64,000 nucleotides of DNA from a plasmid, in the sequence record OW849071.1; one strand, given 5' to 3'. This document shows, piece by piece, positions 36,080 through 60,435 of this stretch; within the stretch, counting starts at the first letter, position 1, and each line of letters begins with the position of its first letter. Both the position numbers and the translations under genes were made by a program. The notes beneath the pieces were generated by a model. That model ran no database searches. It saw nothing but the letters and a program-made list of their open reading frames with translations, and had not been told where the DNA came from.

Positions 36080-37814
36080 AAAACTGGGTCTTCCGCAACT
36101 TAGGTGGAGTTGTTTAAGCCAGAGGGCTCATGACTCGTCGTCGCAGTAACTCGAAGCCAGCTCGACCGTACATCTGCCGTTTCAGCATCTTCAGGCGGTT
36201 TACATGGCCTTCCACAACGCCATTACTCCATCTGCTGCTTATCGCTTCGTGTATTGCTGTTGCATCCGCTTCCATACCGGCCGCAACACGCTGAAGGTCA
36301 ATGAGCCCACTTTGACTGACGTCAGAGAACCATTGATTTAACTGCGATTTATTCTTCGTTTTCAACATTCGATAGAAGTCGAGCGACAGCTGTTGCGCCA
36401 TTTTCAGTTGCGGTTCTTTCTGGCACATCGATTCGATGAAGCGGGATGCATAGTTTTCTTCTCCTCTGATCATTCGCCAGGGCATTAACCAGCGGCTTAC
36501 TCTGGATGCTGAGGGGAGTCGAACTGGGGCGATAACGGGACTGTTAACCTGCTTACGCCACTTAGCCACAGCATCCCTGACCGTCGTTTCGCTCCCGGTG
36601 AAGCCAGCATTTACCATCTCCCGCCATAGCTGCCCGGCATTATGGTTACCGTTTATCCGTTGTTCTTCCAGCCATTCCTGCCATGGTTCAAGTAACCCGG
36701 GTCTGGGTGGCTTAGTTGATATTTCAGGGAACGCTTTTGACTGTATCCACCGGCGAACCGTCACCCGGGACAGTCCGGTGATACGCGATATTTCTCTTAT
36801 CCCACAACCCTTTTTATGAAGAGAGTCTACCTCAGCCCAGCGCTGATACCGTTTGTCACGTCGCTCTCGTTTAATACGTTCAGGGCGACGTAACGTTGAC
36901 GTTGGCACCAAAGACGCTTCAGCATTCTGTTTTTTGGGGGGATAACTCGGTGGCCACCAGTCGTATCAATGGCATGTGTCTGTACATCATGCGCTCCAGC
37001 GCATCACCAATATTCTTCAGCAGATGCCAGCGATCGGCCACCTGTATTGCCTGCGGTGCACCATCGCGAGCAGCTAACGCATAGATCCCCCCACGATCGC
37101 GTGAGACGACCTGTATTTCTGGGTATTTTTTGAACCATGCCGCCAGAGTGCGTTGCTCCCGGCCTGGCAGTAACACCAGGGGGCGATGGGTATCAAGATT
37201 TACGATCAGTGTGCCGTACCTGTGGCCCCGATGCCATGCCCACTCGTCAATACCAACATGCCTGGTCCGGTTCTCTGTTTGTTCCGGAGCTTGAACCACT
37301 CTGCGCAGTAAAGTATCCGCGCTGATCTGTATTCCTGAAGCTACTGCAGCTCGTCTCCCTGCTTCACCACCTGCGATAAGCCCCAGCTGATGCTGCAGAT
37401 TTTTCAGCAATGCAGAAGACTGCTGCTGCGGGCCTGCAAAGGGAGCAAGCGATTCAGCAAAAATTTTACGTGAACAGGAAGGGTTACGACAGTACCAGTG
37501 CCGGATGGCGAAGACTAACCAGAGGGCCTGGCCTGAGCATGGAAGATGCTGTACTCGCCTCCGCCGGCAACTATGAACAGAATGACTGTGCGTGAGGCAC
37601 TCAGGACATGATGCCGTTTTACGTGTGGCGCGGAGATGGAGGGTTATTCCATCAGTACCAGTAATCTGTCGGCAGGTTTGCCACCCGCGCGGTAGCTGTA
37701 AAAGTCTCTTAAGTGAGGCCATTTTGTTATACATAACTTAAAACAGCTTAGATCCTTGTTAACTAAAAAGTTTCATCAATTTTTGTCCACCTAAGTTGCG
37801 GAAGACCCACTTTT
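36080..37814 (-). mobile_element. ISL3-family insertion sequence
   Basis: Terminal inverted repeats of about 29 bp, AAAA(C/G)TGGGTCTTCCGCAACTTAGGTGGA, lie at 36081-36108 and 37786-37813. Confidence 0.7.
36114..37734 (-). pseudogene. ISL3-family transposase, split by a frameshift at a C6A6 tract
   Basis: The N-terminal zf-ISL3 plus DDE region lies in ORF 36919-37734. The C-terminal region (WSNGVVEGHVNRLKMLKRQMYGRAGFELLRRRV) lies in ORF 36114-36911 in a different frame. The junction is at the minus-strand CCCCCCAAAAAA run at 36930-36941. Confidence 0.65.
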
Positions 37815-38305
37815 TACCCGTTGTTGACAGCGGAGCACACCTTAACCCCGTGGTAAGCCTGATTTTTTATCTGATCGGGGCCTGCTCTTTCAGGGCAACC
37901 ATGAATTACATCGTGGCTCAGTTGTTAGGGGCCGGCGCTGCTGCACTGTGCCTGAAGGCTGTCTTTGGCCACTCCCTGCTGGCCGGGGTGACCCGGGTCC
38001 ATATGGGGGTATCACTGTACAATGCCTTTTTCATCGAAGGTGTCATGACTTTTATTCTGATTATGAGCATCCTAACGACCAGAAACCCCGCGATTATCAG
38101 CATTGCTGTTTTTCTTGATGCTTTTATTGGCGGGCCGCTGACGGGGGCAAGCATGAACCCGGCCCGTAGCTTCGGGCCGGCATTGGCCATGGGATACTGG
38201 GATAATCAGTGGCTGTACTGGGCCGCTCCGCTGTCTGGCGGGCTTGTAGCTGTTGCGTGCTGCCAGCTGTTTATGCCGCAACTGAAGTCACCCTCACCGG
38301 AATAA
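37815..38305 (+). pseudogene. 5'-truncated MIP-family aquaglyceroporin (AqpS/GlpF-like)
   Basis: Both NPA boxes are present (GAHLNPVVS, GASMNPARSFGPA). The first lies only about 17 codons from the ISL3 end, so the N-terminal TM1-TM2 are missing. Confidence 0.65.
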
Positions 38306-38321: not shown

Positions 38322-38357
38322 GAATGCCTCTGATGAACAGAGGCATTCTTTTTTTCA
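38322..38357. terminator. Hairpin terminator between the MIP remnant and the GNAT gene
   Basis: GAATGCCTCTGATGAACAGAGGCATTC followed by T8. Confidence 0.45.
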
Positions 38358-38882
38358 GCAACCCACTGTCCGGCTACGCCTTTCCAGAATGAGAACATCT
38401 CTCCATTTTCCGTTCATTTCACCCACTTTTTCCCGGCAGCCGACTTCCCTGAATCCCTGGCTGCGATGTAAAGCAACACTGGCCTGGTTTTCCGGAAAGA
38501 TGCCAGCAAGTAGCGTCCAGAAACCCGCACTTTCCGAGCCCTTTATCAGCCCGGAGAGCAAAGCCCTGCCCGCGCCTTTTCCCTGAAAATGAGTACTGAC
38601 ATAAATGCTCAGCTCTGCGACACCGCGGTATGCATGCCGGCGGGAAAAAGGAGATAGCGCAGCCCATCCCACCACTCTGTTATCAACAGTGGCGACGTAG
38701 CGGCAGTCCTGAAGATGCCCTTCATTCCATTCCAGCCACTCAGGTGCTGCGGTCTGAAAGGTGGCGTTCCCTGTTGCAATTCCTTCCTGATAAATTTCCC
38801 TGACTGCACACCAGTCCTCTTCGTGCATTTTTCTAATGATGATCTCTGCCATTTCTCTGTACCGTATGTTTGCTGTATTCAT
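38355..38882 (-). CDS. GNAT acetyltransferase, phosphinothricin-acetyltransferase (PAT/ArsN1-like) family
   Basis: A PAT-type motif is present (HFQGKGAGRALLSGLI...NGKWRDVLILER). ars genes sit next to it. Confidence 0.7.
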   Translation of the reverse strand: MNTANIRYREMAEIIIRKMHEEDWCAVREIYQEGIATGNATFQTAAPEWLEWNEGHLQDCRYVATVDNRVVGWAALSPFSRRHAYRGVAELSIYVSTHFQGKGAGRALLSGLIKGSESAGFWTLLAGIFPENQASVALHRSQGFREVGCREKVGEMNGKWRDVLILERRSRTVGC

Positions 38883-39133
38883 AGGCAGTCAGAAAACGAG
38901 CCTGCCTGGGCTTCCCGGCGGCGGGACATAATGCGCCCGTCAGCAAAGGATGAAGGTCATTTTATTTTTAGCGGGAATCGGTTTCTACTGTGACGGATTC
39001 ATATGCATTTTTCCATATATATTGTGACGTACCTCATTTCTGAGAGGTATAAACACCGATCATGTTTTCTCCATGCCGCGTAAGTGTAAGGCCCCGGAGA
39101 TGGAGTCATATTATGGACGTGGTTGCGCTCACT

Positions 39134-39175
39134 ATATATTTCTATTATTCTGGAAATATAGAAATAAAATTACGA
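39134..39175. promoter_or_regulatory. Putative ArsR operator: AT-rich inverted repeat ATTTCTAT...ATAGAAAT
   Basis: The palindrome ends 10 bp before the arsR2 start codon at 39184. Confidence 0.35.
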
Positions 39176-39183
39176 GGAATGGG

Positions 39184-39510
39184 ATGGAGCTGAAAATCGC
39201 CGCGATGGTGCTGAAAGAACTTGGCCACACCACTCGTCTCGATATTTACAAAACACTCGTTAAGGCCGGACGTCAGGGACTGCCCGTGGGGGAACTGCAG
39301 CAACATCTCGCCATTCCGGCCTCGACCCTGAGTCATCATCTTTCATCGCTGATATCCGTCTCACTGGTTCGCCAGGAAAGGCAGGGGAGAACACTGTTCT
39401 GCCACGCCTGTTATGACAACCTTGCTGCATTGATTGCCTTTCTGACAGAAGAGTGCTGTGCAGACGAATATGCCCCGCCTGGTTTTATGTCACCACCGGA
39501 GAAAAAATGA
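39184..39510 (+). CDS. arsR: ArsR/SmtB-family repressor (C-terminal Cys type)
   Basis: A wHTH is present ([41 protein letters not shown]). C-terminal cysteines (FCHACY...EECCADE) replace the classical ELCVCD site. Confidence 0.7.
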
Positions 39511-40220
39511 TTGCTGAACTGAAAAATGTTGTTCCTGAGCTGTTTGATACAGGTCTCACCGGGGTCCGCCTGGGTGTAAAGACAGTTGACCATCCTCCCC
39601 GGATCCTGATGTTGTACGGTTCCGTTCGAGAGCGGTCCTACAGCCGTCTGGCCACCGAAGAGGCTGCCCGGCTTCTTACCGCCATGGGTGCGGATGTCCG
39701 CATCTTTAATCCTTCCGGTCTCCCTCTGCCGGATGATGCAGCGGATACGCATCCCAGGGTTATGGAACTTCGCGAAATGGTGCGCTGGTCTGAAGGGATG
39801 GTATGGTGCTCTCCTGAACGTCATGGTGCGATGACCGGCATTATGAAAGCCCAGATTGACTGGATACCACTATCAGAGGGCGCAGTACGCCCTTCTCAGG
39901 GAAAAACCCTGGCCGTCATGCAGGTCTGCGGAGGCTCCCAGTCTTTCAATGCGGTAAACCAGATGCGTATTCTTGGCCGCTGGATGCGAATGATTACTAT
40001 ACCTAATCAATCCTCGGTAGCGAAAGCCTGGCAGGAGTTTGATGAAGACGGACGGATGAAACCATCCCCGTACTACGACCGTATTGTGGATGTAATGGAA
40101 GAGCTGATGAAGTTTACCCTGCTGACCCGGGAGTATGCAGCGTATCTCGTCGATCGCTACAGTGAACGTAAAGAGTCGGCAGAAGCACTTTCCCGGCGGG
40201 TGAATCAGAGCAAAATCTGA
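39507..40220 (+). CDS. arsH: ArsH NADPH-dependent FMN reductase (organoarsenical oxidase)
   Basis: It carries [18 protein letters not shown] and the ArsH family C-terminus. An ATGA overlap couples it to the arsR stop. Confidence 0.85.
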
Positions 40221-40228
40221 GGGCTGGT

Positions 40229-40774
40229 ATGAGTGATGTAACGGCATTCAACAACTGCATGAGCGTGTTCTGGCAACAGCATGAAGCAGAGCTCTCCCGT
40301 TTTCTGGCATCAAGGACAGGCGATCGGGAGCAGGCAGCCGATCTGCTTCAGGAAGTCTTCCTGCGCGCCCGGGCCTGTGCAGACCGCTTCTGTGAAATGG
40401 AGAACCCGCGGGCCTGGCTGTACCGGACGGCGAGGAATCTGCTGACGGATGAGTACCGTGCCGCCAGAGACGTCGTGGTGCTGGAAGACGAGATCCCGCT
40501 GCCTGACGCCTTCCATGAGGCGGTTTCAACGCTGGAGATTTGCCTGCCTGAAACCCTGCAGGCCTTACCTGACGAGGAAAGATGGCTGATAGAAGAGGCC
40601 GATCTGAACCGGCGTCCCCAGCAGCGCCTGGCCGACGAGCTGGGGATCACGCTGACGGCGTTTAAGTCGCGCCTGCTTCGCGCCCGGAAACATCTGAAGA
40701 AGACGATGACGGAACTCTGCCAGGTGGAAGTGGATGATGCGTCTTCCGTCTGCTGCCATAAAAAAATGGATTAA
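40229..40774 (+). CDS. ECF-type sigma-70 family sigma factor with Cys-containing C-terminal tail
   Basis: Region 2 is LLQEVFLRA...NPRAWLYRTARNLLTDEYR. Region 4 is LPDEERWLIEEADLNRRPQQRLADELGITLTAFKSRLLRARKHL. The tail is CQVEVDDASSVCCHKKMD. Confidence 0.7.
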   Translation: MSDVTAFNNCMSVFWQQHEAELSRFLASRTGDREQAADLLQEVFLRARACADRFCEMENPRAWLYRTARNLLTDEYRAARDVVVLEDEIPLPDAFHEAVSTLEICLPETLQALPDEERWLIEEADLNRRPQQRLADELGITLTAFKSRLLRARKHLKKTMTELCQVEVDDASSVCCHKKMD

Positions 40775-40849
40775 CCGCGCATCTTTTTCCCGCCTCACTC
40801 GTTTACCTCAGTGTAAAGCCCCATCATTCAACACTGAGGTAAACAGTCC

Positions 40850-41212
40850 ATGTCAAAAATTGAGATCTTTGAAGCCGCAGGCTGCTGTGCGACCAGCAGC
40901 GTCGTGGTCAGCGATGAAGCCGTCAAATGGAACGCCAGCGCCGAATGGGCGAAAAAGCATGGTGTGAATATTCAGCGTTACAGCTTGGCAAAGAACCCGC
41001 AGCAGTTCCTGAATACGCCCGTCATCAGGGCCTTCCTGAACACGTCAGGAATGGAGTCCCTTCCCGCTACCCTGCTTGACGGCCAGCTGGTGATGGCGGG
41101 CAAGCTCCCGTCCCGGGAAGATATCGCCCGCTGGGCCGGTATTTCCCTCACGCAGGACTGGAATGAAGACAGCACGCAGCCGCGCTGCTGCAGCATTCCC
41201 CGTATGCCTTAA
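40850..41212 (+). CDS. arsD: ArsD-like metallochaperone paralog (Cys12/Cys13 present, Cys18 absent)
   Basis: It aligns with the minus-strand ArsD (AAGCCATSS versus AMCCSTGVCG; LLDGQLVMAGKLPSREDIARWAGI versus LLDGETVMAGRYPKRAELARWFGI). Confidence 0.65.
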   Translation: MSKIEIFEAAGCCATSSVVVSDEAVKWNASAEWAKKHGVNIQRYSLAKNPQQFLNTPVIRAFLNTSGMESLPATLLDGQLVMAGKLPSREDIARWAGISLTQDWNEDSTQPRCCSIPRMP

Positions 41213-41230
41213 TCCCGGAGGAGCTCAACA

Positions 41231-42987
41231 ATGACGATGCCATTTTTACAGAATATCCCCCCGTTTATCTTCTTCACCGGCAAAGGCGGCGTGGGGAAAA
41301 CCTCTCTGGCCTGCGCGACGGCGGTATGGCTGGCTGACCAGGGCCGGAGAACGCTTCTGGTCAGTACCGATCCGGCCTCCAATGTCGGTCAGGTCTTCAG
41401 CCAGACTGTGGGCCACCGGATCACTGGTATCCGCACCGTGGAAAACCTTGCGGCAATGGAAGTTGACCCGATGGCGGCCGCGCAGGCTTACCGCGATCGC
41501 GTGCTCGATCCTGTTCGTGAACTGATGCCTGCCGATGTCATCAGCAACATTGAAGAACAGCTTTCCGGTTCATGTACCACGGAGATCGCGGCGTTTGATG
41601 AATTTACCGCGCTGCTGACCAGTCATGAACTGCGCGAAAAATATGATCATATCGTCTTTGATACTGCACCAACCGGACACACCATCCGTATGCTTGAGCT
41701 GCCGGGCGCCTGGAGCGGGTACCTCGATGCACATCCTGATGCTGCGGCGAACCTCGGCCCTCTGGTGGGGCTGGAGAAACAACAGGACCAGTACGCTGAC
41801 GCAGTGAAAGCCCTCTCTGATACGGCACTCACGCGACTGGTTCTGGTTGCCCGCGCACAGGCGTCGACCCTGAAAGAGGTCTCCCATACCCACGAGGAGC
41901 TGTCGGCTATCGGTCTGCAGCATCAGCACCTTGCCATCAATGGCGTGCTGCCTCCCTTTGCCGGTGAACAGGATCCGCTGGCGCACAGTATTCTGGCGCG
42001 GGAGGAACGGGCCTTACGGGCCATGCCTGAAAACCTCGCGCATCTTCCCCGGTCGATGCTGTATCTGAAGCCTTTTAATCTGGTTGGTCTGGAAGCCCTG
42101 AGGGCGCTGTTTACAGAGAGCACACTTGTTCTGCCGGATCCGGGAGCCACGCTCACGACGGTCGATTTACCGGAGCTTGCCTCCCTGGTGGAGGACCTCA
42201 GCCGAGCGGGAAAAGGGCTGGTCATGACGATGGGAAAAGGGGGCGTGGGGAAAACCACGGTGGCGGCTGCGGTCGCGGTCTCGCTGGCCAGACGCGGTCA
42301 TAAAGTCCACCTGACCACCTCCGATCCGGCAGCCACCTGTCTTACACCCTGGATGGCTCGCTGCCAGGCCTTCAGGTCAGCCGTATCGATCCAAAAGCAG
42401 AGACTGAGCGCTATCGTCGCTTTGTGCTGGAAAATCAGGGAAAAGGTCTGGATGAAGAGGGACTGGCGGTACTGGAGGAAGATCTCCGTTCCCCCTGCAC
42501 CGAAGAGATTGCCGTGTTTCAGGCATTCTCCCGGATCATCAAAGAGGCCAACGACCATTTTGTCATTATAGACACTGCGCCCACCGGGCATACGCTGCTG
42601 TTGCTGGATGCAACCGGGGCCTATCACCGGGAAATGGTGCGCCAGATGGGGCAGGCTCACGATCACGTGATAACGCCAATGATGCAGCTGCAGGATCCGG
42701 AGAAGACCAGAGTCATTATCGTGACGCTTGCCGAAACCACGCCGGTACTGGAAGCGGCCGGGCTGCAGCAGGACTTACGCCGGGCCGGGATTGAACCCTG
42801 GGCGTGGGTCATCAATAACAGCCTCGCGGCCGCGAAGCCGTCCTCCCCGTTCCTGGTCACCCGTGCCCGTCGCGAACTGCCGCTGATCGACGACGTTGCC
42901 GGGCATTATGCACAGCGCATTGCCCTGACGCCACTGCTGAAGGACGACCCGGTAGGCGTGGACCTGCTGGCTGAAATGGCGGGCTGA
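41231..42987 (+). pseudogene. arsA: ArsA arsenite-stimulated ATPase, frameshifted (1-bp deletion near 42335)
   Basis: The first half and the start of the second P-loop are intact up to TTSDPAA. The frame is then lost, and ORF 42424-42987 in another frame continues the ArsA second half. The expected gcc-cac-ctg reads gcc-acc-tg. Confidence 0.75.
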
Positions 42988-43108
42988 CAGGTGGGGCGAC
43001 GCCCTACCTCCACTTAAAACATTTCCTTATACAGGTCATAAGATGAAGCGCTTAATCTGCCGTCGCGAATTCCGGTAGTGTGTCAGTCAACGTCACAGGA
43101 GTCATACA

Positions 43109-43645
43109 ATGCACATTATCAATGCTGAAGAGCAGCACATTCCCGCCATACGGCGCATTTACGCCCATCATGTCCTGCACGGCACAGGCAGCTTCGAGAC
43201 GGAACCCCCGGACACGCAGGAAATGCTTGCCCGGGTGAAAAATGTTCAGTCACGTGGATTTCCCTGGTATATCGCCCTGCAGGGGGAGACGGTCATCGGC
43301 TACTGTTATCTCTCCCGCTACCGCGAACGCCATGCCTACCGGTTTACGGTTGAAAATTCGGTGTACATCGATCCGGCTTATCAGCGGCAGGGGGGCGGAA
43401 AAGCCTTACTCGATCATGCCTTAACATGGGCCCGGTCTCAGGGATACCGCCAGATGATAGCGGTTGTGGGGGACAGTGCGAACGTCGCGTCTGTAGCGCT
43501 GCATCTTCGCGCCGGATTTACTGAAATCGGCACGCTGAAGGACATCGGTTTCAAGCATGGCCGCTGGCTGGACACGGTGTTGCTGCAGCGTCAGCTGGGA
43601 AAAGGGAGCTGTACGCTGCCGGACAGTCCGGTACCCGGACGCTGA
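43109..43645 (+). CDS. GNAT acetyltransferase, PAT/ArsN1-like family (second copy)
   Basis: YQRQGGGKALLDHAL...FKHGRWLDTVLLQRQLG. Confidence 0.7.
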   Translation: MHIINAEEQHIPAIRRIYAHHVLHGTGSFETEPPDTQEMLARVKNVQSRGFPWYIALQGETVIGYCYLSRYRERHAYRFTVENSVYIDPAYQRQGGGKALLDHALTWARSQGYRQMIAVVGDSANVASVALHLRAGFTEIGTLKDIGFKHGRWLDTVLLQRQLGKGSCTLPDSPVPGR

Positions 43646-43652
43646 GGCAGGA

Positions 43653-43674
43653 GAAAGGGGGCATCGCCCCCTTT
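43653..43674. terminator. Bidirectional terminator between the convergent GNAT and arsC genes
   Basis: GAAAGGGGGCATCGCCCCCTTTC. Confidence 0.55.
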
Positions 43675-43677
43675 CGG

Positions 43678-44103
43678 TTATTTCAGCCGTTTCCCTGCCT
43701 CATCTACTACTTTCTCGCCGTCTTCCTTAGCAAATGCGCCTTTTTGCGCATCCGGAAGAATATCCAGTACCACTTCGGAAGGGCGGCACAGACGCGTTCC
43801 CAACGGTGTCACCACAATCGGACGGTTAATCAGGATCGGATGCTGAAGCATAAAATCGATTAACTGATCGTCAGTAAACTTATCTTCCTCAAGCCCCAGT
43901 TCTTCATAAGGCTCGACGTTTTTGCGCAGCAAAGCCCGGACTGAAATGCCCATATCTGCAATGAGTTTGACCAGCTCATCGCGTGACGGTGGATTTTCAA
44001 GGTAATGAATAACGGTCGGTTCATTACCACTGTTGCGGATCATCTCCAGCGTATTACGCGACGTGCCGCAGGCCGGGTTGTGATAAATGGTGATGTTGCT
44101 CAT
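43678..44103 (-). CDS. arsC: ArsC arsenate reductase (glutaredoxin-coupled, R773 type)
   Basis: The 141 aa product starts MSNITIYHNPACGTSRNTL. Confidence 0.9.
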   Translation of the reverse strand: MSNITIYHNPACGTSRNTLEMIRNSGNEPTVIHYLENPPSRDELVKLIADMGISVRALLRKNVEPYEELGLEEDKFTDDQLIDFMLQHPILINRPIVVTPLGTRLCRPSEVVLDILPDAQKGAFAKEDGEKVVDEAGKRLK

Positions 44104-44115
44104 ATCAGTATCTCA

Positions 44116-45405
44116 TTACAAAGTGAAAGAGAGACGTAGCGCCAGCGCTGCCAGCGTTACAAACAGCACAGGCAGAGTCATGACGATCCCGGTGCGGAAA
44201 TAGTATCCCCAGGTGATGGTCATATTCTTCTGTGAAAGGACATGCAGCCAGAGCAGCGTTGCCAGGCTACCAATAGGTGTAATTTTAGGTCCCAGATCGC
44301 AGCCAATCACGTTGGCGTAGATCATCGCTTCTTTGATAACGCCTGTTGCGGTGCTTCCATCGATAGAAAGAGCGCCAACCAGCACGGTAGGCATGTTGTT
44401 CATGATGGAAGACAGGAAAGCCGTCAGGAAGCCAGTACCCAGCGTTGCAGCCCAGAGTCCTTTATCCGCAAGTACATTCAGCACACCTGAAAGGTATTCG
44501 GTTAGCCCGGCGTTGCGCAGACCGTAGACCACCAGGTACATCCCCAATGAGAAGATGACGATCTGCCATGGCGCACCGCGCAGCACTTTGCCAGTTTTAA
44601 TGGCATGGCCTCGTTTAGCTACTGCAAACAGGATCACAGCTCCAACAGCCGCAATCGCGCTAACGGGAATACCAAGCGGCTCAAGGACAAAGAACCCAAC
44701 CAGCAGAAGTATTAAAACTATCCAGCCGGTTCTGAAGGTTGCCAGATCTTTAATCGCTTTTGCCGGTGCTTTCAGAAGAGCCAGGTCGTAAGTCGGTGGG
44801 ATATCCTTGCGGAAGAACAAATGCAGCATAACCAACGTGGCAACAATGGCTGCAATATCCACCGGCACCATTACCGACGCATACTCGGTGAAGCCCAGTC
44901 CAAAGAAGTCTGCAGAAACGATGTTAACCAGGTTGGACACGATAAGCGGCAGGCTGGCTGTATCGGCAATAAACCCGGCAGCCATGACGAATGCCAGTGT
45001 CGTGCCTTTGCTGAACCCTAATGCCAGCAGCATGGCGATGACTATCGGCGTCAGAATAAGTGCCGCACCATCGTTGGCAAACAGTGCCGCCACCGCTGCA
45101 CCAAGCAGAACGATATACGTAAAGAGCAAACGGCCACGACCGTTACCCCAGCGCGAAACATGCAATGCCGCCCATTCGAAAAAGCCGGACTCATCAAGCA
45201 GCAGGCTGATAATAATCACGGCAATAAAGGTCGCCGTCGCGTTCCAGACGATATTCCACACCACCGGAATATCGCCCACATGCACAACGCCAGATATCAG
45301 AGCCAGTCCCGCGCCCAGCATTGCACTCCAGCCGATCCCTAATCCCTTTGGTTGCCAGATAACCAAAACAATGGTCAGGACAAAAATAGCGCCTGCCAGT
45401 AACAT
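44116..45405 (-). CDS. arsB: ArsB arsenite/antimonite efflux permease
   Basis: The 429 aa product has 12 TM segments and belongs to the ArsB family. Confidence 0.9.
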
Positions 45406-45452
45406 AAAACCTCCTGACAGGGCGACTTTGTCGCCCTGTAGATGTCAAAAAA

Positions 45453-47204
45453 TTAACTCATCAACTCTCTGAGCTTTTCAATACCGGCGGGCTCTGACGC
45501 CAGCACCGGAACAAGCGCTATACGGTCAGCATGCTGATTCTTAACAGCCTCAATCTGAGGCAGTTCCTGTTGAGCACGCTGACAAAGCAACGGAGAACGC
45601 GTATCCGCAATGGAAAGGCTGTTATTGATAATCCAGCCCCACGGATGAATCCCCGCTCTTTCAAGGTCAGCCTGCAGGTTTGCCGCTTCCAGCACCGGTG
45701 TGGTTTCAGGAAGCGTAACCAGCAGAACTTTGGTTCTATCCGGGTCCTGAAGCTGCATCATGGGGGTAGTAAAATGACCTTTACTCCCCATTTTTTTGGC
45801 AATCTCTCGGTGATAAGCCCCGGTCGCATCCAGCAACAGCAGCGTGTGTCCGGTAGGGGCGGTATCCATGACAACAAAGCGCTTACCCGCTTCACGAATC
45901 ACACGGGAGAAGGCCTGAAACACGGCAATTTCTTCAGTACAGGGAGAGCGTAAATCCTCTTCCAGTAACCGTTTCCCTGCTTCGTCCAGATCTCTTCCCT
46001 TCGTCTCAAGAACATGCTGGCGATAGCGTTCGGTTTCATCGTGAGGGTTGATGCGGCTGACCTGCAGGTTTTTGAGGCTGCCGTTCAGCGTTGTACTCAG
46101 GTGCGCAGCAGGATCAGAGGTCGTGAGATGCACGTCAAATCCCATGTCGGCCAGCCTGACGGCGATGGCGGCAGCCATCGTGGTTTTCCCTACACCACCT
46201 TTGCCCATCAGCATAATCAGGCCGTGTTCACTGCGAGCGATATCATCGACCAGGCCAGAGAGTGATAAGTTTTCAGGCGTGTACAGGATGTTCGTTACCG
46301 GGAGCGGTAATGCCTCAGAACGGGTAGCCAGCAGTCCCTTCAATGCTGAAACACCAACCATATTGACTGGCTGGAGTAACAGGGTATCTGTCGGTAGCTC
46401 AGATAAACCGGCAGGAAGATTTGCCAGTGCCTCCTGCTCACGTTGCCATATCGCCGCGGCCAGGGCGTCATGTTCAGCTTCGGCTTCAGGCAGCACACCA
46501 TTAATCACCAGATATTGATTTTTCAGGCCAATCTCAGCCAGTTCCTCATGAGTGCGGGCGACTTCCTGCAGCGTAGAATTTTGCAGTCGTGCAACCAGAA
46601 CCAAGCGGGTACGTTCAGGGTCGGATAACGCCTCTACCGCATGAGCATACTGCTCACGCTGCTTTTCCAGCCCGGCCATCGGGCCAAGACAGGAGGCACC
46701 ATCTGGATTGCTTTCAATAAAGCTACTCCAGGCACCAGGAAGCTGGAGAAGGCGAATCGTGTGGCCCGTCGGCGCGGTATCAAAAATGATGTGATCGAAA
46801 CGGGTCAGCAGGGAAGCGTCTGTCAATAAGCCGGTGAACTCATCAAACGCCGCAATCTCAGTGGTGCAGGCTCCTGAAAGCTGCTCGCTGATACTGTTAA
46901 CAACGTCATCAGGCAGAAGACCTTTGATAGGATCAACGATTCTGGCCCGATATTGCCGGGCGGCTTCCTGCGGGTCAATCTCCAGAGCAGAAAGCCCAGG
47001 AACTGCTGTCACAGGGCGAATCGTGTTACCGATAGCCAGATCGAATACCTGACCGACATTGGAGGCCGGGTCGGTACTGACCAGCAAAACCCGCTTACCC
47101 TGTTCGGCAAGGTGGATAGCCGTCGCGCAGGAAATGGAAGTTTTTCCTACACCACCCTTGCCAGTAAAAAACAGGTAAGGCGGGATATTCTGTAATAATT
47201 TCAT
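45453..47204 (-). CDS. arsA: ArsA arsenite-stimulated ATPase (intact)
   Basis: It has two homologous halves, each with GKGGVGKT and DTAPTGHT. The ATG at 47204 is preceded by an AGGAGG Shine-Dalgarno and gives 583 aa. Confidence 0.92.
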   Translation of the reverse strand: MKLLQNIPPYLFFTGKGGVGKTSISCATAIHLAEQGKRVLLVSTDPASNVGQVFDLAIGNTIRPVTAVPGLSALEIDPQEAARQYRARIVDPIKGLLPDDVVNSISEQLSGACTTEIAAFDEFTGLLTDASLLTRFDHIIFDTAPTGHTIRLLQLPGAWSSFIESNPDGASCLGPMAGLEKQREQYAHAVEALSDPERTRLVLVARLQNSTLQEVARTHEELAEIGLKNQYLVINGVLPEAEAEHDALAAAIWQREQEALANLPAGLSELPTDTLLLQPVNMVGVSALKGLLATRSEALPLPVTNILYTPENLSLSGLVDDIARSEHGLIMLMGKGGVGKTTMAAAIAVRLADMGFDVHLTTSDPAAHLSTTLNGSLKNLQVSRINPHDETERYRQHVLETKGRDLDEAGKRLLEEDLRSPCTEEIAVFQAFSRVIREAGKRFVVMDTAPTGHTLLLLDATGAYHREIAKKMGSKGHFTTPMMQLQDPDRTKVLLVTLPETTPVLEAANLQADLERAGIHPWGWIINNSLSIADTRSPLLCQRAQQELPQIEAVKNQHADRIALVPVLASEPAGIEKLRELMS

Positions 47205-47221
47205 ATGTCCTCCTGACATAT

Positions 47222-47584
47222 TCAGCAACAGGAAGTATTACCACCACAGCAACTGGTGGGAGCTAACCCTACCTTCTCCAGCGGAATACCGAACCAGCGA
47301 GCCAGCTCAGCGCGTTTTGGGTATCGCCCAGCCATCACCGTTTCGCCGTCCAGCAACAGCAGCGGAAGCCCTTCTGCGCCGGATGCATCGAGGAAGGCTT
47401 TCGCTTTCTCATTGTGAACAAAGCTCATGGGCTGCTGCGCCAGGTTGTAACGTTCAACCTGTACGCCACGTCCTTTCAGCCACTGCATATCAGCAGAAAA
47501 ATCAACCAGAACCTGATCGACATCTGAACCACATACACCGGTACTGCAGCACATTGCCGGGTCAAACACCGTTAACGTCTTCAT
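47222..47584 (-). CDS. arsD: ArsD metallochaperone/repressor
   Basis: MKTLTVFDPAMCCSTGVCG...SCCGGNTSCC, 120 aa. Confidence 0.9.
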   Translation of the reverse strand: MKTLTVFDPAMCCSTGVCGSDVDQVLVDFSADMQWLKGRGVQVERYNLAQQPMSFVHNEKAKAFLDASGAEGLPLLLLDGETVMAGRYPKRAELARWFGIPLEKVGLAPTSCCGGNTSCC

Positions 47585-54767: not shown

Positions 54768-55270
54768 GCGTATTTCCGCATACTTATCGTACAGACGTTT
54801 TGGTAAAAATAACAGCTGCGGGCAAGTTGCAGAACGCTTAGCAACTCAGCAACGGGGTACTTTTTCTTAAGGGCATCAACTATCAGGGTTTTCTCCCTGT
54901 TTTTCAGTTTCAGAAAGCTGACGCCCAGATCTTTTTTTATCAGTTCATTCGCCTTTGTCAGTATGTCACGTTCGAGCTGCAGCTGATGAACCTGCTTCCT
55001 GAGACGCTGGATTTCACCGAGTAAAGCATCCTGATTTTTATCCTGAGGGGCTGACTTTCGTTTGCGCATGGATTGATAAGCCTCGTCACTGATAAGGTCT
55101 TTCTTCCATTTGTACAGGACCGGGACGCTGACGCCTATGCTTTGTGCAACTTTACGCGCGGTTCCACGTCGGTTACAGAGCTCCCGGACGGCCTGAGACC
55201 TCTCTTCCGGGCTGAAGCATTTGTTTCGTGGGGACTGAACCAGGCTTCGATGGCGGGCAGGAACTGCCAC
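54764..55270 (-). CDS. IS3-family transposase OrfA (HTH)
   Basis: ARKVAQSIGVSVPVLYKWKK plus a leucine zipper. The start is GTG. Confidence 0.75.
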   Translation of the reverse strand: MAVPARHRSLVQSPRNKCFSPEERSQAVRELCNRRGTARKVAQSIGVSVPVLYKWKKDLISDEAYQSMRKRKSAPQDKNQDALLGEIQRLRKQVHQLQLERDILTKANELIKKDLGVSFLKLKNREKTLIVDALKKKYPVAELLSVLQLARSCYFYQNVCTISMRKYA

Positions 55271-55383
55271 AGCAGCATGAGTGCGGCGATGCAGCCAGTG
55301 ATGACGAGCCAGCGCCGGATGAATCGATCCGGCTCCGGGCGGCTGTAGGGGTCGGGTAGGTCACGTCATTCTCCATGTTGAAA

Positions 55384-56346
55384 TCAGCGCCAAAGGCCGC
55401 CAGTGCGCCAGCGTGGCGGACGTGGTGATACGGTCACTTCGGGGTCGAAACGGGCCGATGGAAACGGCGGCATCGCGGGCGGCGGAGCTAGTTCTAGCAA
55501 GCGCTCAATGCGTTCAGCCGTCGCTGGATGCGTGCGCAACCAGGAGGGTTCCGGATTGCCCCATCCGGGCAGCAGCCAGGCGCGCCAGGAGCGGCTCACC
55601 CGCTCGATCTTGGCGAGCGCTGAGGCCAGCCCGTGCGGGTCGCCGGTCAATTCGGCAGCGAGCCGGTCGGCGTCGAATTCGCGCACCCTGGACAAGCCCA
55701 ACTGAGCCAGCAAGGCCAGCTGTGGCGCGACCGCAAGTAGAAGCAACGCGGGCCAATTGACTTCCGTGACTCCAAGCAATAGCGTTGGCAAACTGAGCAC
55801 GATCGCAAGCTGCCCCAACAAGGCCAGAAGATGGGTGAGCCGGCTGATGGAATCGGCCAAGCCCATGACACGCAAATCCTCGTTCGCAATATGCGCGATT
55901 TCGTGGCCGAGCACGCCGGTCAACTCGCGGGGCGTGAGGCTACGCAGCAGGCCGTCGGTCAGCGCGATGGCCGCGTGATGCTTCGAACCGGTGGCGAAGG
56001 CGTTGACGACCCCGCTGGGCACGTAGTGCGGTACCGGCACGGTAGGCAGCCCGGCCCGCGCCGCCAGTTCGCGCAACACAGCCCAAAGATCGGGCGCTTC
56101 ATCCGGGTGCAGGGGGCGTGCGCCATACAGCCGCAAGGTCAGCCCGGAGGCGGCCGCCGGTTCAAGCAGCAGGGTGAACCCCGCAGCCGCAAGCGCCAGC
56201 CAAAGCCCGCCGTCACCCAACAGCAGGCTGCCAGCGACGGCGGCAATTCCGAGCAGGGTCAGCACCAACAGCACGGTTTGCAGGCGATTGTGCCAGCGAT
56301 GCCGCGCGCCGACATTCTGCGCGTGGCGCAGATCACGACTGATCAT
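55384..56346 (-). CDS. M48/HtpX-like zinc metalloprotease (tLST-type)
   Basis: An HEIAH zinc motif and four TM helices are present. The likely start is MISRDL at 56346. The long ORF to 56427 overlaps the psiE stop. Confidence 0.7.
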   Translation of the reverse strand: MISRDLRHAQNVGARHRWHNRLQTVLLVLTLLGIAAVAGSLLLGDGGLWLALAAAGFTLLLEPAAASGLTLRLYGARPLHPDEAPDLWAVLRELAARAGLPTVPVPHYVPSGVVNAFATGSKHHAAIALTDGLLRSLTPRELTGVLGHEIAHIANEDLRVMGLADSISRLTHLLALLGQLAIVLSLPTLLLGVTEVNWPALLLLAVAPQLALLAQLGLSRVREFDADRLAAELTGDPHGLASALAKIERVSRSWRAWLLPGWGNPEPSWLRTHPATAERIERLLELAPPPAMPPFPSARFDPEVTVSPRPPRWRTGGLWR

Positions 56347-56821
56347 CTGAGCTTTCCCCGGCTGTCCGGTCATCGCGCTCGCGCAGCAGCCAGTAAGTCG
56401 CCCCGAGGGCCAGTGTCGCGCCTGCAAGCGCCGCGACCTTGGCGGGGCCGGTCTCCGGGTCGAGGATCACGAATTTACGCGCCAGGGCGATCAGCCCGAT
56501 CAGGATCACCGTCTTGACCTGGATGATGCTGTCGCGCCGCAAGGCCACCCTCACGATGGAATGCTTGAACTCCATGGCAATGAGCAGCGTCATGATCATG
56601 CCGAACACGGTCTGGAAGACCTTGTGATCGAGCGGATTGAATGCATCAATGATCAGCAGGCTGAAGACGATCGAGATCAGCTGCAGCAGCGAGACCACGA
56701 TGATAACGGCAATGATTGCGGACAGCGCGAGCGCGATCACCTGTTCAAAGCGCTCGTAGAACGTCATCACTGCCCATTGGGCGCGAAATGTTTTGATCGG
56801 GTCTGCTTGCTTTTCCTTCAT
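56333..56821 (-). CDS. psiE: PsiE-family phosphate-starvation-inducible membrane protein
   Basis: Four TM helices with ...AMEFKHSIVRVALRRDSIIQVKTVILIGLIALARKFVILD, similar to the PsiE core. The start is MKEKQAD at 56821. Confidence 0.7.
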   Translation of the reverse strand: MKEKQADPIKTFRAQWAVMTFYERFEQVIALALSAIIAVIIVVSLLQLISIVFSLLIIDAFNPLDHKVFQTVFGMIMTLLIAMEFKHSIVRVALRRDSIIQVKTVILIGLIALARKFVILDPETGPAKVAALAGATLALGATYWLLRERDDRTAGESSDDQS

Positions 56822-57082
56822 CGCCACTCCTCTCAATTCTGAAATACTTGTGCGCCCACAACTTGGTTGCACCCTTGTCTTTTTTGCCTGGTAGAGCGCG
56901 CTGTCCGCCTGCAGCATCACCTGCTCGACAGAGTGCAAACGGGGGTCAAGGAGAGCCCCCCCCATGCTGGCGCTATAGCTGATCGACACCTCTCCACACA
57001 CCACCGCTGTCGCCGCAGTGTCCTGACGAAATCGCTCCGCCCATACTTGGGCGCCTTCTATCGATGCCGCTTCCAACAACAC
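56822..57082 (-). pseudogene. 3' fragment of a GGDEF-domain gene, in frame upstream of psiE
   Basis: LLDPRLHSVEQVMLQADSALYQAKKTRV matches the C-terminal end of GGDEF domains. There is no upstream remainder of the gene. Confidence 0.35.
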
Positions 57083-57319
57083 AGCGAATTCCTCCCCCCA
57101 ATCCGGGCAGCCATGTCGGTTGCGCGAACATGTTCCCTCAACCGTGAAGCAAAGGGGTCGGTGATCACCATACGCAGCAACTGCTGCTCTATTTCCTTGC
57201 GAGAAGAGATGTCGAACAGAGTACCGACTATCAGTTGCCTGCCCGCGTCACCCAGCCATGGGCCTTGTTCCTCGAAAGTCGAGTTGCCAGAGGATCAGGT
57301 GAACAGATGGGCCGCGCCG

Positions 57320-57520
57320 TCACGCGAACGGATGGCCAGCGAGCGGGAGGGCAGTGCCGCCGCTGATGAGCAGTCCCCACGGCGTGGCCGACTGCTCATC
57401 ACGCTTGTAGACGCCCGCGTGACCTGCGGCCACGACCGCCACCGCGATCGAGGCCAGGGAGGCTGCCCATGCCAGTGCCAGGCCGATGGGGTCGGACACG
57501 GCAGCCTCGCCCGCCATCAA
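57320..57520 (-). CDS. Small hydrophobic ORF (66 aa) translationally coupled to the clpK stop
   Basis: ATGA overlap with the clpK stop, and a TM-like AAA/V-rich segment. Composition bias from the high GC makes this uncertain. Confidence 0.3.
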   Translation of the reverse strand: MMAGEAAVSDPIGLALAWAASLASIAVAVVAAGHAGVYKRDEQSATPWGLLISGGTALPLAGHPFA

Positions 57521-60312
57521 GATGCGTCACTCGCCTTCGCGGCATCCGGCTGCTCCGGCTCGGCCGGGGTCTGCGGTGGCTCTTTGCGTTCGAACACCAC
57601 GCGTTCGGCCTTGTCGTCCCAGCGTGCGCTGGCGTGATCGCCCTTGCCGATGCCGCCGCCGAGCATCTCGCGCGCCAGCGCAGTTTCCAGCTCGCTGCGG
57701 ATCAGGCGCTTGAGTTCACGCGCACCGAACTCGGGCTTGTAGCCTTCTTCCGCGAAATGGTCGATCAGCGTCTGATCGAAAGTGAGCGTCACGCCCTGGC
57801 TGGCGGCGCTGCGCGCCACGCGATCGAGCTGCAGGCCGACGATGTGGCGGATCTCCTCCTTGCCCAGCGCATGGAAGACGATGATCTCGTCGATGCGGTT
57901 GAGGAACTCGGGCCGGAAATGGCCGCGCAGCACGTCCATGACTCCGGCCTTGGTCTTTTCGTACTCCTCGCCGGCCGCCCCGCGCGCCTTCAGCCGTCGC
58001 TGGATGATGTCCGAACCCAGGTTGGACGTGGCGATGATGATGGTGTTGGTGAAATCCACCACCCGGCCCTTGCCGTCGGTGAGGCGACCGTCGTCGAACA
58101 CTTGCAGCAGGATGTTGTATACGTCAGGGTGTGCCTTCTCGATCTCGTCGAGCAGCAGCACGCTGTAGGGCTTGCGCCGCACCTTCTCGGTGAGCTGACC
58201 GCCTTCGTCGTAACCGACATAGCCCGGAGGCGCGCCCACCAATCGCGCCACGGTATGGCGTTCGCCATATTCCGACATGTCGATGCGCAACAGGGCGTGC
58301 TCATCGCCGTAGATCGATTCGGCCAATGCCTTGGCGAGCTCGGTCTTGCCCACCCCGGTCGGGCCCAGAAACAGGAAGGTAGCCACCGGTTTGCTGCCTT
58401 CACGCAGGCCGGCGCGGGACAGCCGCACGGCATCGGCCACGGCACGGACCGCCTCGTCTTGTCCCACCAGGCGCTCGTGCAGCCGTTGTTCCAAGTGCAG
58501 CAGCTTTTCGCGCTCTTCCACCGTCAACTCGTTGACCGGGATGCCGGTCAGGCGCGAGACGATCTGCGCCACGTGTTCCGCCTTGACCTCGGCACTGCCG
58601 GAGGCCCGCTCCCGCTCCCAGTCCTCGACGAGCTTCTTGAGCTCGGCCTCCTTGGCTTCGATGCGCTTCCCGAGCTCGGCGGCCTGGTCGTACTGCTTGC
58701 GCGCGGCCACGTAATCCTGTTCACGCCGCAGCTGGTGCAGTTCGGACTCCAGCTCCTGCACGGCCACCGGCCGGGCCGTGGCCGACAGCTTCACGCGCGC
58801 GGCCGCCTGGTCGAGCAAGTCGATTGCCTTGTCCGGCAGGAAGCGCGCCGTGATGTAGCGGTCGGACAACTCGGCCGCCGCGATGATCGCGTCCTCGGAG
58901 ATGCTGACCTTGTGGTGCGCCTCGAAGGTGTCGCGCAGGCCGCGCAGAATCATGATGGCCTGGGCCACCGTCGGCTCGGGTACCGTCACCGGCTGGAAGC
59001 GCCGCTCCAGTGCGGCATCCTTCTCGATGTATTTCTGGTACTCGTTCAGCGTCGTGGCGCCGATCAGGTTGAGTTCACCGCGCGCCATCATCGGTTTGAA
59101 CACGTTGGCCACGTCCAGCCCGCCTTCGCCACCGCCCTGGCCGGCACCGACGATGGTGTGCACCTCGTCGATGAACAAAATCAGCTCGCCCTGGTGCTCG
59201 GTCACCTCCTTCAGCACCTTCTGCACGCGCTCCTCGAACTCGCCGCGATATTTGGCGCCGGCCACCATGGCGTTGATGTTGAGTTCCACCAGGCGCTTGT
59301 CGCGCAAGGTCTCGGGCACTTCACCCGCCACCATGCGCTGCGCCAGCCCTTCGACGATGGCGGTCTTGCCCACACCCGGCTCGCCGATCAGCACCGGGTT
59401 GTTCTTCTTGCGCCGGGCCAGCACCTCGATGGTGGTTTCGATCTCCTGCGCGCGGCCGATCACCGGGTCGAGCTTGCCGTCGCGCGCCATCTTGGTCAGG
59501 TCGCGCGAGTACTTGTCGAGTTCTGGCGTGTTGGTCGGCGTCTCAGCGCGGCCATCCTCGGCGCCCTTGCCGACCACCTTGCTGACCTGTTGGCGCAGCG
59601 CCTGCGGCGTCAGGCCGTAGCGGCGCAGCAGGTTGGCGGCCAGCCCTTCGCCTTCCTCAGCCAGACCGATCAGGAAATGCTCTGGACCGACATAAGAATG
59701 GCCGAGTTCATTGGAGGCCACGAAGGCGCGGCTGAGCGCATCCTTCACGCGCGGCGACACGCCGATCTCGCCCTCGAAGGGCTTGTCCCCGCGCTTGGCC
59801 TCAGACTCGATCTGCCGCTTGAGGTCATCGACCTTGATCTTGAACTGACCCAGGATGGTCTTGACCACGTCGCTGTCGGCCAGCGCCAGCAGCAGATGTT
59901 CGGTATCCACCTCGGAGCGGCCAAATTCGGCAGCGTGTTTGGCGGCCTCCTGCAGCAAGGCTTCCGACTGTTCGCTGATGCGGCTGGCCAGCCCACTGCC
60001 GCGACGGCGCGGCGCACCCGAACCTGCGGCGGCGGGCTCGCCAAACGAGGCATCGACCACGTCATCGGTATCGGCGGCAACTGGCGTCGCGTCGTCGCCG
60101 ATGCGGAAGAAGTCACTGCCGAGGAAGTCCTCGAACAGGCCGCTGCGCGAGCCGAACAAGGCTTCCAGCGGCGAAACGGTGCGCTTTTGCTGGCGCACTA
60201 ATTGCCGGTAATGGTCGTCGCACAACAGCATGGTGCTGTGACGACCGTTGAGATTGGCTTCCACCCGCACGGTGGCGGGTTGGCCGCAGACCTGGCATTG
60301 TTTTCTGGCCAT
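57517..60312 (-). CDS. clpK: ClpK/ClpG stand-alone AAA+ disaggregase (heat-resistance ClpB-like ATPase)
   Basis: It has an N-terminal zinc-binding motif ([13 protein letters not shown]...CDDHY) and two AAA+ modules ([16 protein letters not shown]). An AGGAG Shine-Dalgarno sits 6 nt before the ATG at 60312. The longer ORF to 60375 includes repeat-encoded LVNLVNLVN. Confidence 0.9.
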
Positions 60313-60327
60313 GCTGATGCTCCTGAG

Positions 60328-60363
60328 AAGGTTGACAAGGTTGACAAGGTTGACAAGGTTGAG
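60328..60363. repeat. 4 x 9-bp tandem repeat AAGGTTGAC (last copy AAGGTTGAG) in the clpK leader
   Basis: The perfect tandem array lies immediately 5' of the clpK Shine-Dalgarno, read on the coding strand. A GACGAGGC...GCCTCGTC hairpin lies at 60366-60396. Confidence 0.65.
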
Positions 60364-60435
60364 GCGACGAGGCATCGCGAACCGCGACGCCTCGTCTCGT
60401 GCCGGGTTTTTCTTGTGACGAACGAGCCGGCGACG

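Follow-up and report, generated by a model that had tools for sequence, protein, structure and literature searches.

A sigma-70 family gene lying within an arsenic resistance (ars) locus was characterized in a plasmid sequence, record OW849071.1, of which a stretch of 64,000 nucleotides (termed the window) was analyzed. Arsenic resistance is classically controlled by repressors, ArsR and ArsD. An earlier note on this DNA, made from the letters alone, had read positions 39134 to 43645 as a second, degenerate ars cluster and had suggested that the sigma factor encoded there is arsenite responsive and self-regulated. Open reading frame (ORF) listing and scans with Pfam and NCBIfam models bore out the gene order given in that note, identifying a plus-strand unit of arsR2, arsH, sigma, arsD2, a split arsA2 and a GNAT gene, which is convergent with a set of canonical ars genes (Table 1). 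The canonical arsC, arsB and arsA genes occupy positions 43678 to 47228 of the minus strand, with arsA at 45453 to 47228 and with the canonical arsD and arsR genes located upstream of it on the same strand.

The first three genes of the unit are closely packed. The Met codon of arsR2 at 39184 lies in a reading frame open from 39073, the start of arsH overlaps the arsR2 stop codon (ATGA) and the Shine-Dalgarno sequence of the sigma gene, GAGG, overlaps the arsH stop codon, leaving a gap of 8 nt between these two genes. The arsH product was identified as an ArsH protein by its score with TIGR02690. The product of arsD2 reached 80.6 bits against a cut-off of 90 for NF033727 and is, hence, not identified as an ArsD metallochaperone by this model. 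The frameshift previously noted in arsA2 was traced, by comparison with an intact homologue, to a 1-nt deletion after 42333; due to this break and to the presence of an Asn at position 172, arsA2 does not qualify as an ArsA pump ATPase under TIGR04291. The gene is intact in four related loci (L001, L002, L084 and L087) and is also broken in L083. The GNAT protein scored 147 bits, below the ArsN1b cut-off of 210.

Table 1. Coordinates of the genes and control elements of the plus-strand ars unit (positions in the window)
Feature	Position	Strand	Remarks
Imperfect 14-2-14 inverted repeat TATTTCTATTATTC TG GAAATATAGAAATA	39137-39166	.	18 nt upstream of the arsR2 start
arsR2, ArsR/SmtB repressor	39184-39510	+	NF033788, 63 bits (cut-off 55)
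arsH, organoarsenical oxidase family	39507-40220	+	TIGR02690, 401.6 bits (cut-off 292.25)
ECF sigma factor gene, 181 aa	40229-40774	+	Pfam Sigma70_r2 and r4_2
ECF-type promoter motif (predicted)	40779-40804	+	GCATCT (-35), TTT, 12-nt spacer, CGTTT (-10)
Perfect 14-bp inverted repeat GTTTACCTCAGTGT / ACACTGAGGTAAAC	40801-40844	+	Overlaps the -10 element; contains the arsD2 Shine-Dalgarno sequence
arsD2, ArsD family	40850-41212	+	PF06953, 100 bits
arsA2 pseudogene	41231-42987	+	Two ORFs, 41231-42571 and 42424-42987
GNAT N-acetyltransferase, ArsN1b/PAT-like	43109-43645	+	NF040504; last plus-strand gene
GC-rich hairpin separating the GNAT gene from the convergent arsC	43653-43675	.	Likely bidirectional terminator

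The sigma factor consists of regions 2 (PF04542, residues 15 to 80) and 4 (PF08281, residues 105 to 156) only, scores 70.6 bits with TIGR02937 (cut-off 42.9) and has the extracytoplasmic function (ECF) factors SigL, SigH and SigE as its nearest solved chains in a sequence search of the PDB. The protein is, therefore, an ECF (group 4) sigma-70 factor. The best NCBIfam match was to SigZ (TIGR02959), a full-length alignment reaching the end of the tail; the score of 138.3 bits fell short of the cut-off of 168.65, as did that for NF007215 (119.4 against 212), so that by its sequence this factor is a relative of SigZ rather than an equivalog. In the ECF reclassification, SigZ (as subgroup 9) and CorE2 both belong to ECF238, the hallmarks of which are a C-terminal extension, rich in cysteine, of about 20 amino acids and the lack of any anti-sigma factor (PMC7826278). 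A tail of this type, CQVEVDDASSVCCHKKMD, follows region 4.2 and is kept in the homologues. SigZ/ECF238 is the one lineage of ECF factors in which such a tail is regarded as a built-in sensor. The earlier observation that no separate anti-sigma gene is present also held, as none of the ORFs after the sigma gene encodes an anti-sigma domain, there being a gap of 75 nt to arsD2. No anti-sigma domain was detected at any of the loci examined; the genes downstream of sigma in these loci were arsD2, arsP, arsE, acr3, arsM or a DUF2703 gene. Membership in ECF238 is inferred from the relationship to SigZ. The CxC motif found in the linker of CorE-like (ECF44) factors is absent from the alignment, in which a single conserved cysteine, C105 (...LEICLPE...), was detected. 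Self-contained ECF factors with a cysteine tail are, therefore, a known kind, although this protein cannot strictly be called CorE-like. The family is large, as a profile search (E ≤ 1e-30) gave 953 clusters when grouped at 50% identity.

When genomes were scanned with an alignment of homologues, 35 loci, mostly from Beta- and Gammaproteobacteria, were found to encode a sigma homologue of at least 38% identity. In 29 of these, ars genes (arsR, the low-molecular-weight protein tyrosine phosphatase [LMW-PTP] type of arsC, acr3, arsB, arsD-arsA, arsH or arsJ) were found within 7 kb, mostly upstream and on the same strand. The usual order was arsR, LMW-PTP arsC, acr3 (or arsB, arsD-arsA or arsH), sigma, an ArsP-family permease (PF03773) and an MTH895/ArsE thioredoxin-like protein. 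These comparisons indicated that the sigma gene truly belongs to ars loci, in which it is conserved, and that the linkage proposed for this plasmid extends to other genomes.

The linkage extends to distant relatives. Cysteine-tailed proteins of 25 to 37% identity, many of them named SigZ by NCBI, were found in Bacillota, Chloroflexota, Nitrospirota, Verrucomicrobiota, Bacteroidota and Cyanobacteria. The sigma gene adjoins arsM, arsI, arsP or an ars operon in 18 of 21 such loci (12 of 15 from the genome scan, both of two further protein look-ups and all four NCBI-named SigZ genes of cultured Bacillota). Arsenic gene neighbors were not observed in any of 29 control loci, in which the ECF factor is of similar identity and has no cysteine tail. 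The neighboring arsenite methyltransferases, ArsM, scored 285 to 356 bits with NF008823 (cut-off 263) and the ArsI/CadI C-As lyase-family enzymes scored 143 to 146 bits with NF041414 (cut-off 116); other neighbors were ArsP, a DUF2703 thioredoxin-like protein or an entire arsR-arsB-arsC operon. A number of the distant loci are self-regulated modules of only two genes, in which a promoter motif (described below) is followed by arsM or arsI and then by sigma (L038, L147 and L149 to L151; L046 and L061). No other ars gene and no ArsR was detected among the scanned neighbors of these modules, the genomic surroundings of which are unrelated to each other. The DUF2703 gene, also termed "DF family (seleno)protein," adjoins SigZ in three loci, from a member of the Bacillaceae (L043, 8684 to 9274), a cyanobacterium (L044, 7291 to 7965) and Salicibibacter (L152, 4641 to 5171), and in the Salicibibacter locus this gene ends an arsR-arsB-arsC-sigZ operon. 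On the basis of its gene context, the DUF2703 protein is a candidate for a new arsenic-related protein.

Examination of the DNA following the sigma stop codons detected a bipartite motif, with the consensus cTGCATCC-TTT-N12-CGTCT, in nearly all of the homologue loci. Classical ECF promoters have the same geometry, TGCATC-N16-CGTC. In this plasmid the motif is located 5 nt past the sigma stop codon, with its 3′ end 45 nt before the arsD2 ATG, and is the only match in the window. A position weight matrix was built from 38 homologous sites with the window left out; this matrix gave a score of 30.6 bits to the plasmid site and of 14.7 bits, which is in the range of shuffled sequence, to the next site in the window, while no site of at least 14 bits was detected in 434 kb of control ECF loci. 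The motif occurs about once per locus within the clade and precedes arsP, arsD2, acr3, arsH, arsM or arsI in related loci. The distant relatives carry a GCGTCC variant.

Rearranged loci indicated, by comparison, that the motif travels with the target gene rather than with sigma. The insertion of a DUF6630 gene between sigma and arsD2 in L086 has left the motif next to arsD2. In L087, acr3 and arsD2 each have a copy of the motif, with a terminator between them. The motif is found before arsH in L026 and, in Marinobacter, before arsH and, divergently, arsP. In the ars-operon clade the region preceding the sigma gene contained no motif, and hence sigma is not self-regulated in that clade. Of the two places in which the earlier note had proposed looking for an ECF promoter, the region upstream of arsD2 thus contains a predicted one and the region upstream of sigma itself contains none. 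Two further scans were performed for the motif alone. A version with a 13-nt spacer, which is one base too long and hence served in effect as a spacing control, gave 47 matches in metagenome contigs, about the number expected by chance, only one of which (L130, Ga0247838_1005904) was near a sigma/ars locus; this site is in an arsR-arsD-arsA-sigma locus, 3.1 kb downstream of sigma, and perhaps represents a naturally occurring promoter with a longer spacer. The version with a 12-nt spacer gave 11 matches in viral contigs, several being copies of one phage sequence, and no sigma or ars gene was close to any of them; ars genes are seldom carried by phages, which makes such contigs a poor test.

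The tail of the plasmid sigma factor ends in ...ELCQVEVDDASSVCCHKKMD, exactly as quoted earlier, when its three cysteines had been regarded as a triad capable of binding As(III). Conservation of cysteines was counted in 94 distinct sequences of at least 35% identity. C105 was present in all 94, C55 in 92 and C10 and C164 in 90 each, and sequences lacking C10, C55 or C164 were truncated or frameshifted entries; C175, C176 and H177 were found in 80, 79 and 77, respectively. These counts support one part of the earlier proposal, as C164 is near-invariant, and tell against the other, since the C175-C176 (CC) pair is dispensable in at least four ars-linked lineages and three further cysteines, C10, C55 and C105, are kept as well as C164; the triad is thus not the conserved unit. 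When the wider family is considered, C105 and C164 alone are general, with C10, C55 and the CC pair marking the ars-operon clade and with SigZ proper having CC at 163 to 164 plus a distal C-x2-C. The tail is a trait of ECF238 as a whole and not an ars-specific addition (PMC7826278). To judge from the residues kept, every variant would have enough thiols for an S3 site and, equally, for structural zinc or for disulfides. We know of no solved structure of CorE or SigZ.

Control of the sigma gene itself appears to lie upstream of arsR2. Repeats of the 12-2-12 type are typical of ArsR/SmtB repressors, and by analogy the 14-2-14 repeat preceding arsR2, which is kept in loci with 81% identity (L001, L002 and L087) while the flanks diverge, is a likely ArsR2 operator. 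A scan for sigma-70 promoters upstream of arsR2 gave nothing convincing, TTGCGC-17-TATTCT at 39123 to 39151 being a weak reading, and no terminator was predicted in the plus-strand unit before 43653. The overlap of arsR2 with arsH and the 8-nt gap between arsH and sigma indicate that sigma is read from the upstream ars promoter. As sigma is packed behind arsR2-arsH and downstream of the conserved repeat, ArsR2 could supply the arsenic signal, and arsenic responsiveness in this plasmid would not require sensing by sigma. RNA-seq data for an identical plasmid, pBIC1a, grown without arsenic gave values of 21 for arsR, 39 for arsH and 47 for sigma, followed by 9 for arsD and 4 and 4 for arsA (PMC6286996); this drop at arsD/arsA is consistent with a separate, inactive downstream unit.

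The perfect inverted repeat preceding arsD2 was predicted to form an RNA hairpin of −23.2 kcal/mol (z score of −6.3). In a predicted RNA starting at 40811, about 7 nt after the −10 element, the 5′ arm is lost and the region is unstructured. The outer stem is kept in diverged loci (L001, L084, L086 and L087) and the inner stems differ. This palindrome was also considered as an ArsR2 operator and was rejected, the half-sites being unrelated to those of the repeat upstream of arsR2 and the arms being 16 nt apart.

The other products of the unit differ from the canonical proteins in their arsenic ligands. Of the three cysteines that serve canonically as As(III) ligands, two are present and one is missing in each of ArsR2, ArsD2 and ArsA2, while the canonical ArsR, ArsD and ArsA encoded in the window keep all three. 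The best solved relative of ArsR2 was AfArsR (6J05), and the vicinal pair C91-C92 near the C terminus of ArsR2 aligned with Cys95-Cys96 of that protein; no downstream cysteine was available to match Cys102, and thus ArsR2 does not have the three-ligand site of the AfArsR type. Two further cysteines, C73 and C76, are present in ArsR2. Comparison with the canonical ArsD of the window indicated that ArsD2 has kept Cys12-Cys13 and has Val at 18 in place of Cys18. ArsA2 has kept Cys113 and Cys422, and the Asn at position 172 is also present in the intact orthologues. This two-thiol pattern is conserved in L001 and L084. A two-cysteine ArsR that ArsR2 resembles, SpArsR, is reported to respond to methylarsenite and not to arsenite (PMC11868830), and ArsH and ArsP act on trivalent organoarsenicals (PMC6205960). 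The pattern suggests two-coordinate ligands such as methylarsenite. Since each of the three proteins is without one ligand cysteine and arsH is present, the module may, by analogy, be directed at organoarsenicals, e.g., methylarsenite or roxarsone(III).

The module is widely distributed. Hundreds of large plasmids of Klebsiella, Enterobacter, Salmonella and Escherichia coli contain the 4.7-kb stretch with 100% identity, with 1,441 records matched and 915 of these at 99% identity or higher. The exact sigma protein was present on at least 1,000 contigs, under the database name of just "sigma-70 family RNA polymerase sigma factor." Versions of about 81% identity, with an intact arsA2, are located in E. 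coli chromosomal islands, where they are also convergent with arsRDABC. The ratio of nonsynonymous to synonymous substitution rates of the sigma gene relative to four homologues was 0.11 to 0.15, tail included, indicative by this measure of purifying selection. The chromosome of Citrobacter amalonaticus (L087, 6001 to 10111) contains the order arsR2-arsH-sigma-acr3-arsD2-arsA2, and Cedecea has sigma-arsD2-arsA2. In this comparison the plasmid module looks like a reduced derivative in which acr3 has been lost and arsA2 has been frameshifted. Three Klebsiella database entries (P0001, P0003 and P0057) are of unusual structure, the forms found being a frameshift in the tail (216 aa, with an unrelated C terminus), an N-terminal truncation (168 aa) and a protein called as an ArsH-sigma fusion (252 aa), and could represent sequencing or annotation artifacts or real decay.

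On the linkage, promoter and co-transcription data, it is fairly probable that a working SigZ-like (ECF238-type) sigma factor and a cognate promoter placed after its own stop codon form a two-tier switch in the ars module. In the first tier, arsR2, arsH and sigma would be one transcription unit, the promoter of which is overlapped by the ArsR-type repeat, and sigma would be made only once a trivalent arsenical has released ArsR2. In the second tier, for which comparison of loci argues well, sigma would take RNA polymerase to the motif downstream of its gene, resulting in expression of arsD2, arsA2 (a pseudogene in this plasmid) and the GNAT gene. The chances are about even that, as a further step, a thiophilic ligand, e.g., As(III) or methylarsenite, is bound by the clade-specific cysteines of the factor (C10 and C55 in sigma-2, together with C105, C164 and, in most cases, C175-C176-H177 in sigma-4 and the tail), which would gate activity in the manner of CorE/CorE2 and make an anti-sigma factor unnecessary. 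More speculatively, read-through transcripts may fold the hairpin and so hide the ribosome-binding site of arsD2, while transcripts started by sigma, having their 5′ ends within the 5′ arm, would keep this site accessible.

Several observations weigh against the two-tier switch. The evidence is wholly comparative. The enterobacterial −10 element is CGTTT and the consensus is CGTCT. The AlphaFold model has a good core (mean predicted local distance difference test [pLDDT] score of 84) and an unstructured tail, with pLDDT values of 41 to 72. The CC pair is the feature most suggestive of arsenic binding and yet, on a neighbor-joining tree, was swapped for EG, AG, SG, AA, RS or CS in at least four separate lineages, all of them ars linked and all having retained the motif and its targets. 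Finally, arsA2, the main downstream gene, is broken, and hence the module is perhaps only partly functional.

A wider reading, to which we give somewhat less than even credence, is that the SigZ family as a whole consists of one-component sensors of trivalent arsenicals, As(III) and/or methylarsenite, acting through their own cysteines. The targets would be arsM, arsI, arsP-arsE, arsH, acr3 or arsD-arsA, read from a family-specific promoter, TGC[AG]TCC-TTT-N12-CGTCT. Direct sensing of arsenic by sigma is plausible, by analogy, because of the stand-alone, self-regulated arsM-sigma modules, in which no other regulator was found; that the CC pair has been lost several times tells against its being the gate.

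The same loss would be accounted for if sigma were active as soon as it is made and were controlled only through ArsR2, the cysteines being structural (zinc or fold). This explanation is on balance unlikely and yet deserves serious weight, as sigma is located behind arsR2-arsH or arsR-arsC-acr3, with no cognate motif upstream, in nearly all of the ars-operon loci, the four invariant cysteines would suit a Zn(Cys)4 site and transcriptionally regulated ECF factors without an anti-sigma factor are an accepted class (PMC8999054). The distant self-regulated arsM-sigma and arsI-sigma modules are, however, difficult to reconcile with it: no ArsR was found near them and an ungated positive loop would lock on, so that some gate is needed. 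The confinement of C10 and C55 to the ars-operon clade is a further point against a purely structural role.

Decay of the plasmid module, with the plus-strand genes on the way out of this lineage and sigma being without a useful role, is rather improbable. The arsA2 frameshift is common to all of the identical plasmids and a broken arsA2 recurs in L083, acr3 has been lost relative to the fuller, ancestor-like order of L087, an insertion sequence and a truncated aquaporin gene lie next door, and some clinical copies of sigma are truncated or frameshifted (e.g., P0001 and P0003). Sigma, arsD2, arsH, arsR2, the GNAT gene, the promoter motif and the hairpin are, however, all intact, and both the strong purifying selection on sigma between lineages and the number of contigs bearing the exact protein tell against decay.

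There is only a slim likelihood that the cysteines form a thiol-redox switch, with disulfides between C10 and C55 and between C105/C164 and the tail, which senses the thiol or oxidative stress caused by arsenicals rather than arsenic. The residues do form two plausible intradomain pairs, the targets regularly include thioredoxin-fold proteins (ArsE, ArsD2 and DUF2703) and zinc-binding anti-sigma (ZAS) motifs with similar cysteine patterns sense redox (PMC6851896), but the linkage is specific to arsenic genes and not to general redox genes. Chance juxtaposition with a regulator of a non-arsenic function, an outcome that would have told against the earlier note and which the generic database name alone would allow, can be dismissed, as the linkage is conserved in Gamma- and Betaproteobacteria, Bacillota, Chloroflexota, Nitrospirota, Verrucomicrobiota and Bacteroidota and is refuted as an accident by the neighborhood statistics (0 of 29 control loci).

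The closest known counterparts of the plasmid factor are CorE and CorE2 of Myxococcus xanthus, formerly ECF44 and now placed in ECF238, in which the factor's own cysteines bind metal and so gate activity, with metal on the cysteine-rich domain being required for promoter binding, and in which the CxC in the sigma-2/sigma-4 linker is strictly conserved within the CorE-like subgroup (PMC6851896, PMC8999054). The plasmid factor resembles these proteins in having no anti-sigma partner and a short cysteine-rich C-terminal domain and in being encoded among metal resistance genes. It differs in having the single Cys105 in place of the linker CxC and the extra conserved C10 and C55 in sigma-2, in having arsenic genes as neighbors rather than copper, zinc or cadmium genes and in not being self-regulated, since it is located behind a predicted ArsR-controlled operon. 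With the NCBI-named SigZ genes of four Bacillota isolates it shares the promoter motif and the layout of sigma, a promoter immediately past the stop codon and the target; the tails differ, being C-x10-CCH in this factor and CC-x-[LV]-[ED]-x-D...[DN]-Y...C-x2-C in SigZ. No function or phenotype has been reported for SigZ of Bacillus subtilis (PMC7826278).

As in the arsRDABC operon of R773, the first gene of the unit encodes a repressor of the ArsR family and has a probable operator, and ArsD and ArsA homologues are located downstream, but a sigma gene and promoter have been inserted between the repressor-controlled genes and arsD-arsA. OrbS of Burkholderia cenocepacia, an iron starvation factor, is reported to be an ECF factor with its own metal sensor in place of an anti-sigma factor (PMC9023288); OrbS belongs to another ECF group and its ligand is iron. 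HrpL (ECF32) similarly has no anti-sigma factor, is made on demand by another pathway and acts as the second tier of a cascade (PMC8999054). In the plasmid unit the upstream controller would be an ArsR-family repressor, and conserved cysteines are present in sigma, whereas HrpL-type factors have none.

The word "sigma" does not appear in two broad surveys of ars genes (PMC6205960, PMC4435449), and "arsen" is absent from the body of the ECF reclassification paper, although its supplementary descriptions of the groups may list arsenic neighbors (PMC7826278). We found no paper linking this sigma family to arsenic, a statement to which that supplement may likewise hold exceptions. Cysteine-tailed ECF factors without an anti-sigma factor were already known, while the literature searched contained no mention of a connection with arsenic, of the promoter motif or of the ars-operon clade. 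A sigma factor with a predicted cognate promoter is present inside ars loci of many phyla, one of these being carried by a very common large plasmid of clinical Klebsiella. Were the tentative reading of SigZ proteins as arsenical sensors true, direct sensing of a metalloid would be known for sigma factors for the first time, SigZ of the B. subtilis type would have a function and a third class of arsenic regulator would stand beside ArsR and ArsD; the function of this orphan family is now open to a concrete and cheap test. The sigma/promoter pair is compact and probably host independent, with possible uses in biosensors for arsenic or organoarsenicals, and the paralogous ArsR2/ArsD2/ArsA2 set, with its two-thiol sites, may handle organoarsenicals.

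Two different GNAT genes flank the module. The one at the left, at 38355 to 38882 on the minus strand, is nearest to ArsN1a, with a score of 148 against a cut-off of 170, while that at the right, at 43109 to 43645, is nearest to ArsN1b/phosphinothricin acetyltransferase. Further to the left, a split or frameshifted ISL3-type transposase gene is present on the minus strand (36114 to 36911 and 36919 to 37734) and adjoins an MIP/aquaporin gene without its N-terminal part (37796 to 38305); these two genes point to rearrangement at the left boundary of the ars region. The GC content of the window is about 0.5, with shifts to 0.61 to 0.66 at 55000 to 61000 and to 0.36 to 0.41 at 3000 to 10000, which suggests mosaic mobile DNA.

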